From Escherichia phage SKA64: DNA of 64,000 nt. The position numbers and the translations under genes were made by a program. Positions 6,217 to 43,094 of the stretch are shown piece by piece. The stretch lies in sequence record OM362897.1; one strand, 5' to 3'. Each line of letters starts with the position of its first letter. The stretch's first letter is position 1. The notes under the pieces are model-generated. The model was not told where the DNA came from and searched no databases. It saw nothing but the letters and a program-made list of their open reading frames with translations.

Positions 6217-6397
6217 AACAGTAGAAGAAGCCGTAAAAGCAGCTTATGAGGCTTTAGCGGAAGCAGAACAGTTAGCAGACGAGACTGGTGAAGGTTTCAG
6301 TTTCTCCCCTGAATATGGGATGGGTGGTTATTATGATCCAGAAGATGAAAATGAGAATACTGGAACAAATTGGCATCCATCTTCTTTAAGTTGTTAA
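6200..6397 (+). CDS. small acidic protein, member of tandem family with C-terminal W-x-SS-x-SC
   Basis: ORF track; ends TNWHPSSLSC. Confidence 0.5.
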   Translation: MTTKFKTVEEAVKAAYEALAEAEQLADETGEGFSFSPEYGMGGYYDPEDENENTGTNWHPSSLSC

Positions 6398-6408
6398 TAG
6401 GAGGTAAA

Positions 6409-6678
6409 GTGGGAATCGAAGATATCAAAGGTTATAAACCGCATACCGATGACAAAATTGGTAAAGTGAATGCTATTAAAGATGCTGAAGTTCGATTAGG
6501 ATTAATCTTTGATGCTCTAATGTCTGAATTGTGGGCTGAACTGGATGATTGTGAAGATTTGGAAGAGTCTACCAATATATCCACCCGCCTTGACCAAATT
6601 TCAATAGCAAAGACTAAGTTGAAAGAAGCTTCTATGTGGGCCTGTCGTTCCGTTTTCCAACCAGAGGAGAAATACTAA
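6409..6678 (+). CDS. hypothetical protein
   Basis: in-frame GTG at 6409 after AGGAGG (6399-6404) preferred over track start 6370. Confidence 0.4.
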   Translation: MGIEDIKGYKPHTDDKIGKVNAIKDAEVRLGLIFDALMSELWAELDDCEDLEESTNISTRLDQISIAKTKLKEASMWACRSVFQPEEKY

Positions 6679-28164: not shown

Positions 28165-28891
28165 GATAATCTCCTCTCATCGTTAGCCATCTTTCATGGC
28201 AATCATCAATCACCAACATCATACGATCAATCTTAGGGAATTACAATCGAATTATCATAGGGGATTCCTATCAATTATCCCATATATACCGATTATTTTT
28301 GACACCCCACTCTTGTATAAAAAGTAACCCAAAATATCTACGGGGAGAGATTATTTCGGGACACCCTGTTTCATGGCAATCATGGCAAGAATATCTAATA
28401 GAATCAATATCATATGGCAAAAATCATGGCGCATACGTAAGAAGTGCTTAACGCGAATTTTCGGGCCGTCAGGTCCACGCAGCGACAATTCCCAAATATC
28501 ATGAGAATGAGAATAATTATCATTCGTATTCAATGACTTATGCAAGGCTTATGCCAACGTAGCGACAAGGTGGGCCACTTGATTATAAATCACACAAACA
28601 CTTATTTATCAATGGTTTGGCAACCTCATCATATGACGGAACAATGTCAACTGATCCCGCTCATGACAAGCAGACTATTATTTATATGAGAATGATTATT
28701 ATTTAAACGTTTATTAGCATAAAAACTAAAATAAATCAAGAATTTTCTGATTTTATTTACGTTTAAGAGAAGATGCTCAACATATCGCTACGCGATAGTA
28801 TTCGCCCCCGAAAGATTAGCCTTTATTTTCTTGTATGTTTATACGCTATGTGCACACTATGCAACCTGTCGCTATTCGCTCATGTTGCTAC

Positions 28892-29167
28892 GTGCTAATA
28901 CTTCACCGTGCTAATGATCTTTGAGCGATAGCGATTATTTCATCTTGTAATTACCACAATGATTATTGTTATTGCGCTAATGTTATGATCTTGGTAATTA
29001 CATATAATGCTAATAATAAGCCAGCGCAATAAGTGTAAGCGTATTACGCTTGCAATTATTGCAAGCTACGCAGTAACAAGAAATAACCATCACCGATGGT
29101 TATGATTGTTGGGGTGTAGTTGGCTTATTATTAGCTCGCTATGTGTCCGGCATAGCGTGCTAATGAT
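28892..29167. repeat. iteron-like direct repeats (C)GTGCTAATGAT plus palindromes
   Basis: GTGCTAAT-type copies at about 28892, 28908, 28974, 29008, 29157; palindromes AAGCGTAtTACGCTT (about 29037-29051), TTGCAATtATTGCAA (29050-29064), AACCATCaccGATGGTT (29085-29101). Confidence 0.5.
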
Positions 29168-40468: not shown

Positions 40469-40523
40469 AGCGGGAACTATTCCCGCTTTATGTAACATAT
40501 TAACAAATTATTCGTTAATGTCA
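40469..40523 (-). promoter_or_regulatory. promoter + leader hairpin cassette
   Basis: minus strand TTGACA ... TAATAT ... gcgggaatagttcccgc. Confidence 0.5.
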
Positions 40524-40527
40524 AGCC

Positions 40528-40800
40528 TTAAAGCAAAAACGCTACATCTTGCGCTTTTAGTGTAGTATCAACCATTTTCGGGCTTTTATAATCAACAAAG
40601 CGCGCGGTTTTTTCAATAGCGAAACCGAGATAATCTTGTTTATTGAATTTACATTCTTTCTTAAATGTTTCCCGCGCCACGGTGATCGCTGCGTCCAGGG
40701 ATAAACGCCCGTCAATGTTGATATTTGCGAAAGATCCGCCACCGCTCATAGGTTTACCAGTGGTGCCAGTTACGATCATTGTTGCGCTATATGATGCCAT
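40528..40800 (-). CDS. hypothetical protein
   Basis: ORF track; AGAAGAGAGAAATC RBS. Confidence 0.55.
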   Translation of the reverse strand: MASYSATMIVTGTTGKPMSGGGSFANINIDGRLSLDAAITVARETFKKECKFNKQDYLGFAIEKTARFVDYKSPKMVDTTLKAQDVAFLL

Positions 40801-40821
40801 GATGATTTCTCTCTTCTGTTA

Positions 40822-40879
40822 GGCGGGGCGCTTGTCGCCCCTATGTGATACATCTTATCAGGTTGTGGCTTGTTGTCAA
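40822..40879 (-). promoter_or_regulatory. promoter + leader hairpin cassette
   Basis: minus strand TTGACA ... TAAGAT, CACATAGGGG + ggggcgacaagcgccccgcc. Confidence 0.55.
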
Positions 40880-40884
40880 GACTT

Positions 40885-41082
40885 TTATTCTATTCCTGCA
40901 ATCTGCTTAACGCGCTTGCATTTTGCAGTATGCTGATCTTCTGTAATTACTCCCATTTCTAACAGTGAATCAATGAAAGATAAAACCGTTTCATGATCAT
41001 CTTGGGGATGACTGAACTCAGTAAAACCGTTTACTATTACGTTGATTTGTCCAGCTTTCGCCACAATGTGCAATGTTGCCAT
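40885..41082 (-). CDS. hypothetical protein (65 aa)
   Basis: internal ATG (MATLHIV) after GGAG. Confidence 0.5.
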   Translation of the reverse strand: MATLHIVAKAGQINVIVNGFTEFSHPQDDHETVLSFIDSLLEMGVITEDQHTAKCKRVKQIAGIE

Positions 41083-41103
41083 GATCTTAACTCCAAATAG
41101 TGA

Positions 41104-41160
41104 GCGGCACCATTGCCGCCCTACGTGGTAAATATTATGCCGCCACCTGGCGAACGTCAA
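41104..41160 (-). promoter_or_regulatory. promoter + leader hairpin cassette
   Basis: minus strand TTGACG ... TAATAT, TTACCACGTAGGG + gcggcaatggtgccgc. Confidence 0.5.
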
Positions 41161-41268
41161 CCACTTTTTCAATCTTTTTATTTTCTTTTTGCTTGCTATA
41201 TATAAAGGAAAGGGCTATCATCTTTCTACCGCGCCAACCAGGGCGCACAACAAAGAAAGGGCGACACC

Positions 41269-41535
41269 ATGACAAATACTACATTACACCTTATGCACTC
41301 ATTGGGCTGGCAAGGCGGCACGGTGCACCAGGTAGCAAGCGCAACGGGCTTAAAGGTTGAAACCGTTCTCAACCTATCAGATTATAAGGTCGAGGATAGT
41401 TATCAATTACAAAGTTACACGGGCGGTTTTACCTGGGCGCGTGAAGGTGGGAAAGAAAGCAATATACCACATTGGGGAAAAGGTGATATTCATTTTTGGC
41501 TAGGTGTCCTGACCTGGCAAGAAAACAAAAAATAA
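41269..41535 (+). CDS. hypothetical protein (lone + strand gene inside - block)
   Basis: ORF track; AAAGGG upstream; no clear promoter assigned. Confidence 0.45.
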   Translation: MTNTTLHLMHSLGWQGGTVHQVASATGLKVETVLNLSDYKVEDSYQLQSYTGGFTWAREGGKESNIPHWGKGDIHFWLGVLTWQENKK

Positions 41536-41537
41536 TC

Positions 41538-41566
41538 TTGACAAGCCCAGGGATCGGGCTTATACT
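41538..41566 (+). promoter_or_regulatory. sigma70-like promoter (alternatively part of a weak terminator)
   Basis: TTGACA, 17 bp, TATACT; spacer itself is a small hairpin agccc...gggct. Confidence 0.35.
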
Positions 41567-41572
41567 GTTTTA

Positions 41573-41680
41573 CATACAGAAGAGGAAGCGCCACCCCACG
41601 GCGTAAAGGCGGGGCTAACATACCAGGGGCACTGGTTGGAAGGTTGATCGCCGGTAGGCTGGGCGCTATATATTTGTAAA
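41573..41680 (+). ncRNA. candidate structured small RNA
   Basis: GC-rich non-coding segment after promoter; closing stem AGCGCC (about 41587-41592) with GGCGCT (about 41662-41667), internal CCCC/GGGG and CCAG/CTGG stems, then AUAUAUUUG. Confidence 0.3.
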
Positions 41681-41785
41681 GAAATGTAAAGATAAAATAA
41701 TCGCTTGCTTTCCTGGGTGGATCTGTTATTCTTATTACATGGCGAGGGGACACGGGAGCGCGAGACAAACACCGCCCCTGCGCGT

Positions 41786-41903
41786 CATTCTCTAAATGAG
41801 AATGATTATCATTTACCTTATCAAATAAGAATCAATCTCATTTATAAACCTAAATGCGAATCATTATCATTTGCATTTCCATATGAGAACTCTTCTCATT
41901 CCC
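41786..41903. promoter_or_regulatory. cluster of Fur-box-like AT-rich operator motifs
   Basis: GAGAATGATTATCATTTAC (41798-41816; 15 of 19 matches to GATAATGATAATCATTATC), GCGAATCATTATCATTTGC (41856-41874), palindromes CATTCTCtaaatGAGAATG and ATGAGAActcTTCTCAT. Confidence 0.35.
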
Positions 41904-41921
41904 ATCTGCATAAATTTTTGT

Positions 41922-42098
41922 AAACTTTAAATTTTGCTTTTGTACTTTCATTTTTGTAAAAGCAAAAAAACTTTAAATACTGTGGGCGCGCAAAATTTTT
42001 AAAATTTTCCTTGATTTTTGAGTTTTGTTTTGTATCTGACATTTTAAGATAATTTTCCTAAACTTTAAATTTTGGTTTTCAACTTTCACTTTTGTAAA
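41922..42098. repeat. AT-rich 39 bp direct repeat pair
   Basis: AAACTTTAAATTTTGCTTTTGTACTTTCATTTTTGTAAA (41922-41960) vs AAACTTTAAATTTTGGTTTTCAACTTTCACTTTTGTAAA (42060-42098). Confidence 0.5.
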
Positions 42099-42261
42099 TT
42101 CTTAAAAAGTTTAAATAATTTGAGGGATTTTTGAGATAATAGGTAATGGGAATTTGAGATAACCTTTAATCTTATTGGCAGACCTTCAGGAACCCACTCA
42201 GATCGAATCCTAGTGATGCAAACTGAAAAAGACAAGGGTTTGTATAGGACAAAATAATAGG

Positions 42262-42290
42262 CTCTCTACGGTGCTGTAGGAGCCTTATTT
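42262..42290 (-). terminator. rho-independent terminator (bidirectional-capable)
   Basis: ggctctctacggtgctgtaggagcc hairpin with T/U-rich tracts on both sides; downstream of minus gene ending 42341. Confidence 0.55.
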
Positions 42291-42340
42291 CTGTGCTACA
42301 AAGTGACGCCTTTGTTCTAAAAATGAAAAAAGTTAAAATA

Positions 42341-42883
42341 TCACAAATATCGTCTTTGCGGTATTTTGTCTGGGAAAAGTATTTCGATCAGTTTGTTATG
42401 ATATTTACCTAAAAGATTTTGCCCTTTCCAGTTGACCGGATTTAGCACCCCTGGTTCATACATTCCCATTCCAATACCGTAAACCTTATCGTAAGGACTT
42501 GCTTCAACAAACGTTTTGTATTGGTAAAGGTGTAAGTCTGCATACAAATCTGGATTCTGTACATATTTCAAGCATAAACCTCGCATAACAATACGCTCAC
42601 GGTTCTCTTCCCATACATTGTTATCAAAATCCGACACTGCCCTACCCATACGTTTGTAATAAGCCTGGATCTTCTCATCTTTCCGTATCAAACTATGAGT
42701 CAGAATAGCCTGTGCAGTGTTGTGATCATTAAAAAGCAAAGCTTTACGCCACATCATGTATTGTTCGACACAATTAAATGTCTGATTGTAACCTGGTTCG
42801 GTTTCTGTAAAGGGTGCAATATACCAATTACTAAAAACATCTTTATGTGAAAAGAAGAATACATAATCATCAGTTATTCGCAT
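42341..42883 (-). CDS. NADAR (YbiA-like) domain protein
   Basis: FFFSHKDVFSNWYIAPF, VEQYMMWRKAL, LCLKYVQNPDLYADLHLY, FVEASPYDKVYGIGMG match YbiA/NADAR blocks. Confidence 0.8.
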   Translation of the reverse strand: MRITDDYVFFFSHKDVFSNWYIAPFTETEPGYNQTFNCVEQYMMWRKALLFNDHNTAQAILTHSLIRKDEKIQAYYKRMGRAVSDFDNNVWEENRERIVMRGLCLKYVQNPDLYADLHLYQYKTFVEASPYDKVYGIGMGMYEPGVLNPVNWKGQNLLGKYHNKLIEILFPDKIPQRRYL

Positions 42884-43094
42884 TTTTCATACTCTCCAAA
42901 ATTTCACGTTGCCCTTGCTGATAGGCTTTCATCAGAACTACTTTAAGGTTTGTCTCCAAGAGGTCTTCATTGTAATTATACCGCTCCACAACATATGTCA
43001 ATTCATCATAAAGATCAAGAACGGGGTAGAATACAGGGTTATCTGCTAAACGTGCCATAGTTTCTCCTTTGTTAATCCATCCACCAGTAGCCAT
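42870..43094 (-). CDS. hypothetical protein
   Basis: ORF track. Confidence 0.5.
   Translation of the reverse strand: MATGGWINKGETMARLADNPVFYPVLDLYDELTYVVERYNYNEDLLETNLKVVLMKAYQQGQREILESMKNANN

Follow-up and report, generated by a model that had tools for sequence, protein, structure and literature searches.

A probable small non-coding RNA gene with its own promoter and a predicted pseudoknot in Escherichia phage SKA64 and related phages

A stretch of 64,000 nucleotides from Escherichia phage SKA64 (sequence record OM362897.1; this whole stretch is called the window below) contains, amid an extended series of short early genes on the minus strand, a non-coding stretch of approximately 800 bp (41536-42341) that starts with a short G+C-rich element designated RNA1. 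The source of the window is a Phapecoctavirus (phAPEC8-like, Stephanstirmvirinae), and the 1.3 kb around RNA1 share 99.4% identity with Escherichia phage iGC_PHA_EC001 and 93% with phAPEC8. Directly before the non-coding stretch lies the only plus-strand gene of the region (41269-41535), the "lone" gene behind which a preliminary description of this DNA had placed a candidate small structured RNA with its own promoter. The conserved non-coding body of RNA1, as delimited by a covariance-model match, occupies positions 41573-41665 on the plus strand, with the conserved part stopping at approximately 41657. These roughly 95 nucleotides contain 62% G+C against a window average of 37-42%, in agreement with the earlier remark on a G+C-rich segment in an A+T-rich genome. 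A small structured RNA with its own promoter, as first suggested, is also what fits the comparative evidence best, and it is considered very likely that 41573 to approximately 41657 constitutes a real small non-coding RNA gene.

A sigma-70 promoter (promoter P1, TTGACA-17-TATACT) is present at 41538-41566 on the plus strand, with a predicted start at approximately 41572-41574. It matches 11 of the 12 consensus positions, the top sigma-70 match within the scanned interval 40500-43000. This is the promoter that had been singled out from the sequence of the phage, and it is more than a chance resemblance, since a promoter scoring 9-12 out of 12 was found at a constant distance upstream of the RNA in all 22 lineages tested and the -35 and -10 columns are invariant (alignment A1). 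The promoter spacer holds a G+C hairpin followed by a T-run (41543-41561, plus strand), a terminator-like site assigned to the upstream plus-strand gene. Hairpin and T-run are kept in other genera with a different sequence, and the promoter of a mobile HNH cassette described below shares the design. With the terminator hairpin nested in the promoter spacer, one 29-bp unit would thus stop the upstream transcript and start the next. The arrangement recurs, in that a 17-nt sigma-70 spacer repeatedly houses a G+C-rich terminator hairpin with the -10 box in its T-rich tail (41543-41561 in the window; approximately 6380-6415 in sequence L026). An obligate partnership between RNA1 and the upstream plus-strand gene has been rejected, as the family of this gene changes between genera (phrog_19316 versus DUF7170/phrog_4653).

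RNA1 has been detected in a large number of related phages. With the 161-nt segment as blastn query, one site was found in each of 226 phage records, and with the homologue from CR9 as query the number was 232, with one copy per genome; on the window, covariance model R1 gave a single copy at 102 bits. The records comprise Phapecoctavirus, Justusliebigvirus, Vequintavirus-like phages, Seunavirus, Certrevirus, Mydovirus and Henunavirus, fall in the Stephanstirmvirinae and Vequintavirinae, and come from hosts ranging from Escherichia, Klebsiella, Salmonella and Cronobacter through Pectobacterium, Proteus, Serratia and Erwinia. RNA1 also occupies the syntenic loci of L065 and L063, two lineages in which the AAA-ATPase shares 58% and 43% identity, respectively, with that of the window. 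Exact-pattern scans added 16-18 IMG/VR contigs and 13 metagenome contigs, mostly of approximately 145-155 kb, and the same kind of scan across 185,579 bacterial and archaeal genomes returned only a phage contig in a metagenome-assembled genome and one chance hit. A blastn comparison with 5,426 E. coli genomes and 72,556 plasmids, which is insensitive to complementarity of 12-16 nt, detected no RNA1 homologue. Mean pairwise identity reaches 0.876 in the core (41589-41657) as opposed to 0.55-0.63 in the immediate flanks and 0.41 at the end of the upstream gene, and alignment between the subfamilies is limited to the RNA body. Conservation in related phages, one of the checks named in the preliminary description, is therefore far higher in the core than in its flanks across two subfamilies and beyond. 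The near-invariance spans approximately 75 nt and includes stems and loops alike, freedom being found only at the tip of one hairpin (P3). Two candidates were rejected along the way: a Dehalococcoidia hit (L030), which consists of a gene end and then a terminator and lies at about chance expectation, and L036, a G+C-rich stretch that reads as coding and gives no match with model R1. As a separate matter, the RNA1 locus occurs at 91-94% identity to the window in records named Campylobacter phage A150 and B15, and a record named Acinetobacter phage ABPH49 matches the copy of a Cronobacter phage at 83.5%; the host labels of these A150, B15 and ABPH49 records (MG065639.1, MG065650.1, MH533020.1) look doubtful.

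The segment has no counterpart among known RNA families. ARAGORN detected no transfer RNA (tRNA) or transfer-messenger RNA gene on the whole window, in keeping with the earlier observation that the sequence did not fit a tRNA cloverleaf. A covariance-model search against the 4227 models of Rfam 15, likewise foreseen in that description, produced no match at gathering score across the window, and RNA1 stayed unmatched at E <= 10 in the surrounding 1.3 kb, in a 123-nt segment and in the CR9 homologue. Several likenesses seen by eye were tried, namely 5S ribosomal RNA, the 3' end of 16S ribosomal RNA with its Shine-Dalgarno pairing, domain IV of 4.5S RNA, CsrA GGA sites, the sarcin-ricin loop, the c-di-GMP-II riboswitch and a fold like that of hepatitis delta virus. 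These were set aside because the matching residues vary across alleles, the order of the elements misfits, or the Rfam models are silent. Literature searches yielded no description of RNA1, and the rV5 genome paper shows just a "non-coding" box and an origin that is unmapped (PMC3606486).

The statement that no open reading frame is present must be modified in the letter, given that minus-strand frames of 92 and 70 amino acids overlap RNA1, and it holds in substance: the frames are inconsistent between relatives. Coding sequences (CDSs) have been annotated on the minus strand across RNA1 in some records (phAPEC8_00257; GEC_vB_MG gp239c and gp240c; approximately 41428-41769 of the window and L010 1376-1739), while most phage records annotate nothing there. 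The open frames vary in frame and length in every lineage, and the 92-residue frame matched no family in PHROGs or Pfam. Insertions and deletions of 1-7 nt occur inside the region, and since these are not multiples of three the segment is non-coding. Coding on either strand was accordingly rejected, and the minus-strand annotations are probably mis-annotations. It is well supported that RNA1 is an expressed RNA gene of a new family. The sole annotations lying over it in the 232 records are spurious CDSs.

Comparison of homologues has allowed a secondary structure to be proposed for RNA1, the elements of which all lie on the plus strand. At the 5' end, the purine-rich tail CAUACAGAAGAGGAAG (41573-41588) is probably single-stranded; it is always A/G-rich, with a sequence that varies among alleles. 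It is followed by hairpin P1 (41589-41603), predicted by RNAalifold, in which a CGCC/GGCG stem, invariant in nearly all sequences, carries the 7-nt loop ACCCCAC. The central G-rich segment GGCGGGG (41608-41614) shows covariation with this loop and has a dual complementarity, as its GGGG (41611-41614) can pair with the loop CCCC (41594-41597) in a pseudoknot and its GGCGG can alternatively pair with UCGCC (41648-41652). Hairpin P3 (41619-41638), obtained with RNAalifold and manual analysis, has a bulged base, a variable tip and covariation at its basal pair. The 3' segment GAAGGUUGAUCGCCGGUAG (41639-41657) is kept in allele types A, B and H, introduced below, and in lineage L063, and AUCGCCGG within it varies less than any other element of the family. 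The elements common to all RNA1 sequences are ACGCC, ACGGCG, an A-rich linker and AUCGCCGG.

Covariation in related phages, also among the checks envisaged at the outset, has been found in the form of compensatory changes both in hairpin P3 and in the pseudoknot. Among 49 distinct sequences the basal pair of P3 is A-U in 29, G-C in 19 and G-U in one, and both the A-U and the G-C state occur within Mydovirus-like as well as within Seunavirus-like sequences. The stem reads ACCUG:CAGGU in L065 as opposed to ACCAG:CUGGU in the window, and ACCC:GGG in Hena1 as opposed to ACCG:CGG in L063; in Kashira and ABPH49 it is GCCG:CGGC, with a bulge-adjacent pair that is U-G in the former and C-G in the latter. 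The G-U wobbles are compatible with the plus strand only. In the P3 loop, a G-run (41626-41629 in the window) has anywhere between 4 and 7 G in Phapecoctavirus and Justusliebigvirus sequences that are otherwise nearly the same, which looks like slippage in an unconstrained loop. As for the loop of hairpin P1, it carries CCC(C) together with GGGG in 9 of 17 distinct combinations and CCA(A) together with (U/C)UGG in the remaining 8, and a mixed state never occurs. This covariation indicates an H-type pseudoknot between the P1 loop and the G-run downstream.

The second complementarity of the central segment is less uniform. Pairing with the invariant 3' strand AUCGCCGG takes the form GGCGG:UCGCC, GCUGGC:GCCGGU and GGUGAU:AUCGCC in three allele types, with a joint shuffle probability of 0.03-0.09 per allele type. 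In L063, the pseudoknot and the second pairing would both depend on one and the same CUGGC. A strict model with a second helix P2 was abandoned as inconsistent across alleles, owing to register shifts and to its absence from L060 and L065. Hairpin P1, the pseudoknot and hairpin P3 are hence supported by the comparison, and a second pairing, as a stacked helix or as the alternative state of a switch, is plausible. The closing stem that had been put forward for the RNA, AGCGCC (41587-41592) with GGCGCT (41662-41667, plus strand), was correctly read in that both arms are present; it is found in Phapecoctavirus sequences only, is missing from phi92 and all other genera, and uses bases of hairpin P1, with which it competes in the minimum-energy fold.

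Divergent alleles of RNA1 have been found at the same locus by searches with covariance model R1 combined with synteny. Besides type A, a type H is present in Henunavirus and a type B in KP12, A7_1 and others, with L058 and L060 as intermediates. Near relatives differ in the type that they carry at the locus (A in W70/A73 versus B in A7_1; A in BIS47/Mydo versus B in KP12), from which it follows that the alleles are functionally interchangeable. A mobile HNH cassette also carries the type-B allele. Raoultella phage Ro1 and Escherichia phage cardinal each have a type-A copy, intact through ...GAUCGCUGGUA, which is followed by a ribosome-binding site and the gene of a 197-residue HNH endonuclease (phrog_953, E 8e-79; HNH in RefSeq), and 3' of this gene come a new promoter with a spacer hairpin (TTGACAAGCGCCCGGCAAGGGCGCATAAT), a type-B copy and then the normal downstream flank. 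Pectobacterium phage P7_Pc has copy A, the last HNH codons and copy B. These arrangements were located at L026 6294-7129 (minus strand), L054 795-1626 and L055 1343-1626; the cassette is present in three genera, each time with that lineage's own A copy upstream and a short co-conversion mark (GCC>GCU). It bears the signature of a free-standing, intron-less homing endonuclease directed at the RNA gene and accompanied by a variant allele with its own promoter, and the type-B allele would then be resistant to cleavage. The fact that the cassette restores both promoter and RNA copy speaks for a need to have the RNA expressed, and the HNH reading frame, if read from promoter P1, implies that transcription from this promoter continues past RNA1.

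The 3' end of RNA1 would have to form by a route other than intrinsic termination, given that the plus strand of 41567-41783 holds no terminator-like site and the first one lies at 41784-41806. The preliminary description had RNA1 end in ATATATTTG, and this sequence does follow the closing stem; it does not qualify as a terminator tail. The conserved TTTG is no U-tail of RNA1 either and forms part of TTTGTAAAGAAATGTAAAGA (41673-41692, plus strand), which appears to be an UP-like element of the next promoter. This element is conserved, lies outside the RNA fold, and resembles the sequence upstream of another early promoter (30254-30237, minus strand). The promoter in question, P2 (TTGCTT-16-TATTCT, 41705-41732, plus strand), is promoter-like and weak in the window; its position is conserved (alignment A3), and in other genera, including distant lineages, it reads TTGCAA-17-TATATT. 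It would drive a candidate RNA2 of approximately 75 nt (41739-41815, plus strand), with the conserved segment GAGACAAACACC and the terminator-like hairpin at 41784-41806. The arrangement of promoter P2, UP-like element and RNA2 is conserved across all genera, including the lineage with the 43%-identical ATPase, and the order RNA1, promoter P2, RNA2, palindromes and direct repeats is maintained across genera, with the complete module present even in that lineage.

Taken together, these data favor a trans-acting, partner-binding structured RNA, a reading to which a probability of roughly 0.4 is assigned. According to this model, host RNA polymerase would transcribe RNA1 early from promoter P1, and the transcript would fold, from 5' to 3', into an unstructured purine tail, hairpin P1, a pseudoknot of its loop with a G-run 8-11 nt downstream, bridged by the A-rich linker, a bulged P3 with a freely variable tip, and the invariant 3' segment AUCGCCGG, which is pairable with the central G-rich segment. 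Because the central segment can pair in two ways, pseudoknot and second pairing may be stacked or may be alternatives, and in the latter case they would form a switch. The invariant single-stranded and tertiary surfaces would bind a macromolecule conserved in the Enterobacterales or across the phages with RNA1, and RNA1 may thus attach to a protein or ribonucleoprotein or act as a decoy. Its 3' end could arise by processing in the AU-rich linker, or RNA1 could be the 5' domain of a transcript of approximately 240 nt ending at 41806-41815. Partner binding or a precise tertiary structure is favored by the near-invariance over approximately 75 nt in place of a short seed. Sequence analysis establishes the promoter, the conservation, the covariation and the lack of coding; that RNA1 is transcribed, where it ends, what it binds and that it acts in trans are inferences. 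A bolder proposal would make RNA1 a new pseudoknotted core RNA of rV5-like phages, with a central segment that toggles between the P1 loop and AUCGCCGG and thereby reprograms the transcribing polymerase, binds a host machine (RNA polymerase, ribosome or RNA chaperone), or works by cleavage or ligand sensing. RNA1 would then be so important that a homing endonuclease parasitizing its gene must bring a working replacement allele; this proposal is regarded as possible and less likely than not.

Several observations weigh against the trans-acting reading or the fold on which it builds. RNA1 lacks an intrinsic terminator, the first terminator-like site being that at 41784-41806. The fixed order of RNA1, promoter P2, RNA2, palindromes and repeats fits a role in cis equally well. 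Type B replaces the Shine-Dalgarno-like GGAAGGUGG, which is consequently not required, and the allele type of L060 and L065 has no good second pairing. Most stem positions never vary, which leaves covariation sparse within the common allele and confines it to a handful of base pairs and of switches between alleles. With respect to thermodynamics, the folding energy of the conserved body in 10 homologues gave z values of -0.8 to +1.0 relative to shuffled sequences, the minimum-energy folds are unlike between homologues, and a z of -2.2 was reached only when the lineage-specific closing stem was included; a thermodynamic signal for RNA1 was thus dismissed as not significant.

Among the alternatives, the one that survives best is that RNA1 is a cis-acting leader, either an antiterminator of the put type or the structured 5' part of an activating or primer transcript for an origin in the repeat locus of approximately 800 bp. 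As an antiterminator, it would allow transcripts begun at promoter P1 to pass the RNA2 hairpin and the palindromes and enter the repeats. The putL and putR RNAs of phage HK022 are structured antiterminator RNAs of approximately 65-90 nt with two stem-loops and no known pseudoknot, and they precede coding operons in a temperate phage. RNA1 resembles them in lying directly 3' of a host-type promoter, with its body approximately 16 nt from the predicted start, no open reading frame and no terminator of its own, and would likewise be encoded in the nascent transcript just after a promoter; it differs in that nothing coding lies downstream. If RNA1 contacts RNA polymerase, strong conservation would be expected. 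A plus strand free of genes beyond RNA1 speaks for a role in cis. Promoters P1 and P2 point into an AT-rich, repeat-bearing non-coding region in every genus examined, as would those of an origin or primer transcript of the ColE1 RNA II or T7/T4 type. Given the fixed module order, kept across genera though the repeat sequences differ, the missing terminator of an RNA that begins where transcription starts, and the two promoters in tandem, a cis-acting leader comes close to the trans-acting reading in plausibility. The HNH cassette adds to this, in that its reading frame is placed for read-through from promoter P1 past RNA1 and a promoter with an RNA1 copy is restored just upstream of promoter P2. 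Apart from weak AU-rich hairpins, however, there is no evident terminator that would need suppression. R-loop origins of the T4 oriF kind can do without a conserved structured RNA, and GC skew, in which no switch is seen at the RNA1 locus, is uninformative about an origin. A role in cis is treated as a distinct possibility that falls short of being probable; the replication origin of rV5-like phages is unmapped (PMC3606486).

It is unlikely that RNA1 is a base-pairing regulatory small RNA that would use its invariant 3' segment or its 5' purine tail to bind an mRNA of host or phage. An early promoter of its own and conserved stretches that are possibly unpaired would suit such a function, and base-pairing small RNAs are known from phages and prophages. 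Small RNAs dependent on Hfq, however, normally end in a Rho-independent terminator with a U-tail, both of which RNA1 lacks; its conservation covers the whole body of approximately 75 nt and is not confined to a short seed, and the sequence of the 5' tail is not conserved. A search for antisense targets of RNA1 or RNA2 in the 64-kb window found no complementary site beyond chance. The C4 RNAs of phages P1 and P7 and the CI RNA of P4, of approximately 70-80 nt, also have no terminator, being processed from constitutive leader transcripts, and act as antisense RNAs on nearby targets. RNA1 shares with them the small size and the missing terminator and differs in that it has no target in the window and leaves the C4 model unmatched.

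A riboswitch-like switch or a self-cleaving ribozyme with a pistol-like order of elements is rated slightly lower still. The pistol ribozyme (Rfam RF02679) occurs in phage-related contexts and is characterized by a 6-bp pseudoknot, conserved nucleotides and a G-U cleavage site. RNA1 is of roughly similar size, and its elements come in the order known from pistol, with a hairpin loop that forms the pseudoknot, an A-rich linker, a plausible second helix around the pseudoknot partner and a variable hairpin. The likeness is one of topology, in that the segment paired with the loop falls between P2 and a variable P3 after the A-rich linker. Self-cleavage would explain how a 3' end is formed without a terminator, and the alternative pairings of the central segment, along with the invariant unpaired nucleotides, would suit a switch. 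Nonetheless, pistol and all other ribozyme and riboswitch models of Rfam remain silent on the 123 nt even at E <= 10, the pseudoknot has 3-4 bp in place of 6, the conserved nucleotides differ, the internal loops far exceed those of pistol in size (CUAAC and an 11-nt 3' junction), and a downstream gene to be regulated is missing.

A DNA-level element without a functional RNA, for instance a protein site, an origin element or the recognition site of the HNH endonuclease, appears very improbable. It would account for extreme sequence conservation alongside an unremarkable folding energy, for the repeated CGCC/GGCG motifs, for the position inside a repeat-rich non-coding locus and for the use of RNA1 as a homing target. 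It does not account for compensatory changes that preserve hairpin and pseudoknot, for strand-specific G-U wobbles or for a promoter that is always positioned to transcribe the RNA, even inside the mobile cassette, and the invariant block of 75 bp is far longer than usual protein sites. Minus-strand protein coding, for which only the 92- and 70-residue frames and their annotations in phAPEC8 and GEC_vB_MG speak, can practically be discarded in view of the shifting frames and lengths, the insertions and deletions, the missing PHROGs and Pfam matches and the blank records described above.

Small non-coding RNAs are known in virulent phages; what is new here is the family, its unusual fold and its association with a homing cassette. 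RNA C and RNA D of phage T4 are stable small RNAs located in the tRNA cluster, where the homing endonuclease SegB also resides. RNA1 is comparable as a G+C-rich, highly conserved gene of the stable-RNA type in AT-rich virulent phages, at a homing-endonuclease locus. In contrast to these, it lies outside a tRNA cluster (the window has no tRNA) and has its own promoter, a predicted pseudoknot and a cassette with a replacement allele. Phages of the rV5, phi92 and phAPEC8 type rank among the therapy candidates isolated most often against E. coli, Klebsiella, Salmonella and Cronobacter, and their early regions have been annotated almost wholly as hypothetical proteins. An RNA that is more conserved than its flanks and appears to be made from a host-type early promoter would be an overlooked core component of the program for host take-over or replication. 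The finding also corrects spurious CDS annotations in public records, and the natural exchange of A, B and H alleles provides a map of which RNA1 nucleotides matter. In addition, the locus offers a clear example of what looks like a free-standing homing endonuclease aimed at the gene of a non-coding RNA, with a substitute copy of that gene and its own promoter brought along.

Additional features have been recorded in and around the non-coding stretch. Four palindromes of approximately 21 bp are arranged at a 29-nt spacing in 41794-41901 (AAATGAGAATGATTATCATTT), and other genera have 4-6 copies (L063, L065). A likeness to the E. coli Fur box amounts to 15 of 19 positions at 41798 and 16 of 19 at 28503, in the first of two further palindromes (28503-28527 and 28688-28706); these sites may serve as Fur operators, titrate Fur as a sponge or be bound by a phage protein. 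After the palindromes, AT-rich direct repeats of 62-76 nt in 2-4 copies occur in every genus, at 41913-42122 in the window and elsewhere at L004 1829-2033, L008 1860-2041, L046 1728-1935 and L011 1862-2036. Their sequences are genus-specific (e.g., GAAAAGTCGATCGAGAACC or GAAAAACCTCTCAAGT), and they are iteron-like and may mark a replication origin. The interval 28200-29100, which holds two of the palindromes resembling Fur boxes, is apparently non-coding as well, and GC skew weakens at 28-30 kb. At the far end of the non-coding stretch, the converging minus-strand gene at 42341-42883 encodes a NADAR-domain protein (PF08719, E 2e-35), which adjoins the locus in L065 too and belongs to a family associated with the reversal of ADP-ribosylation.

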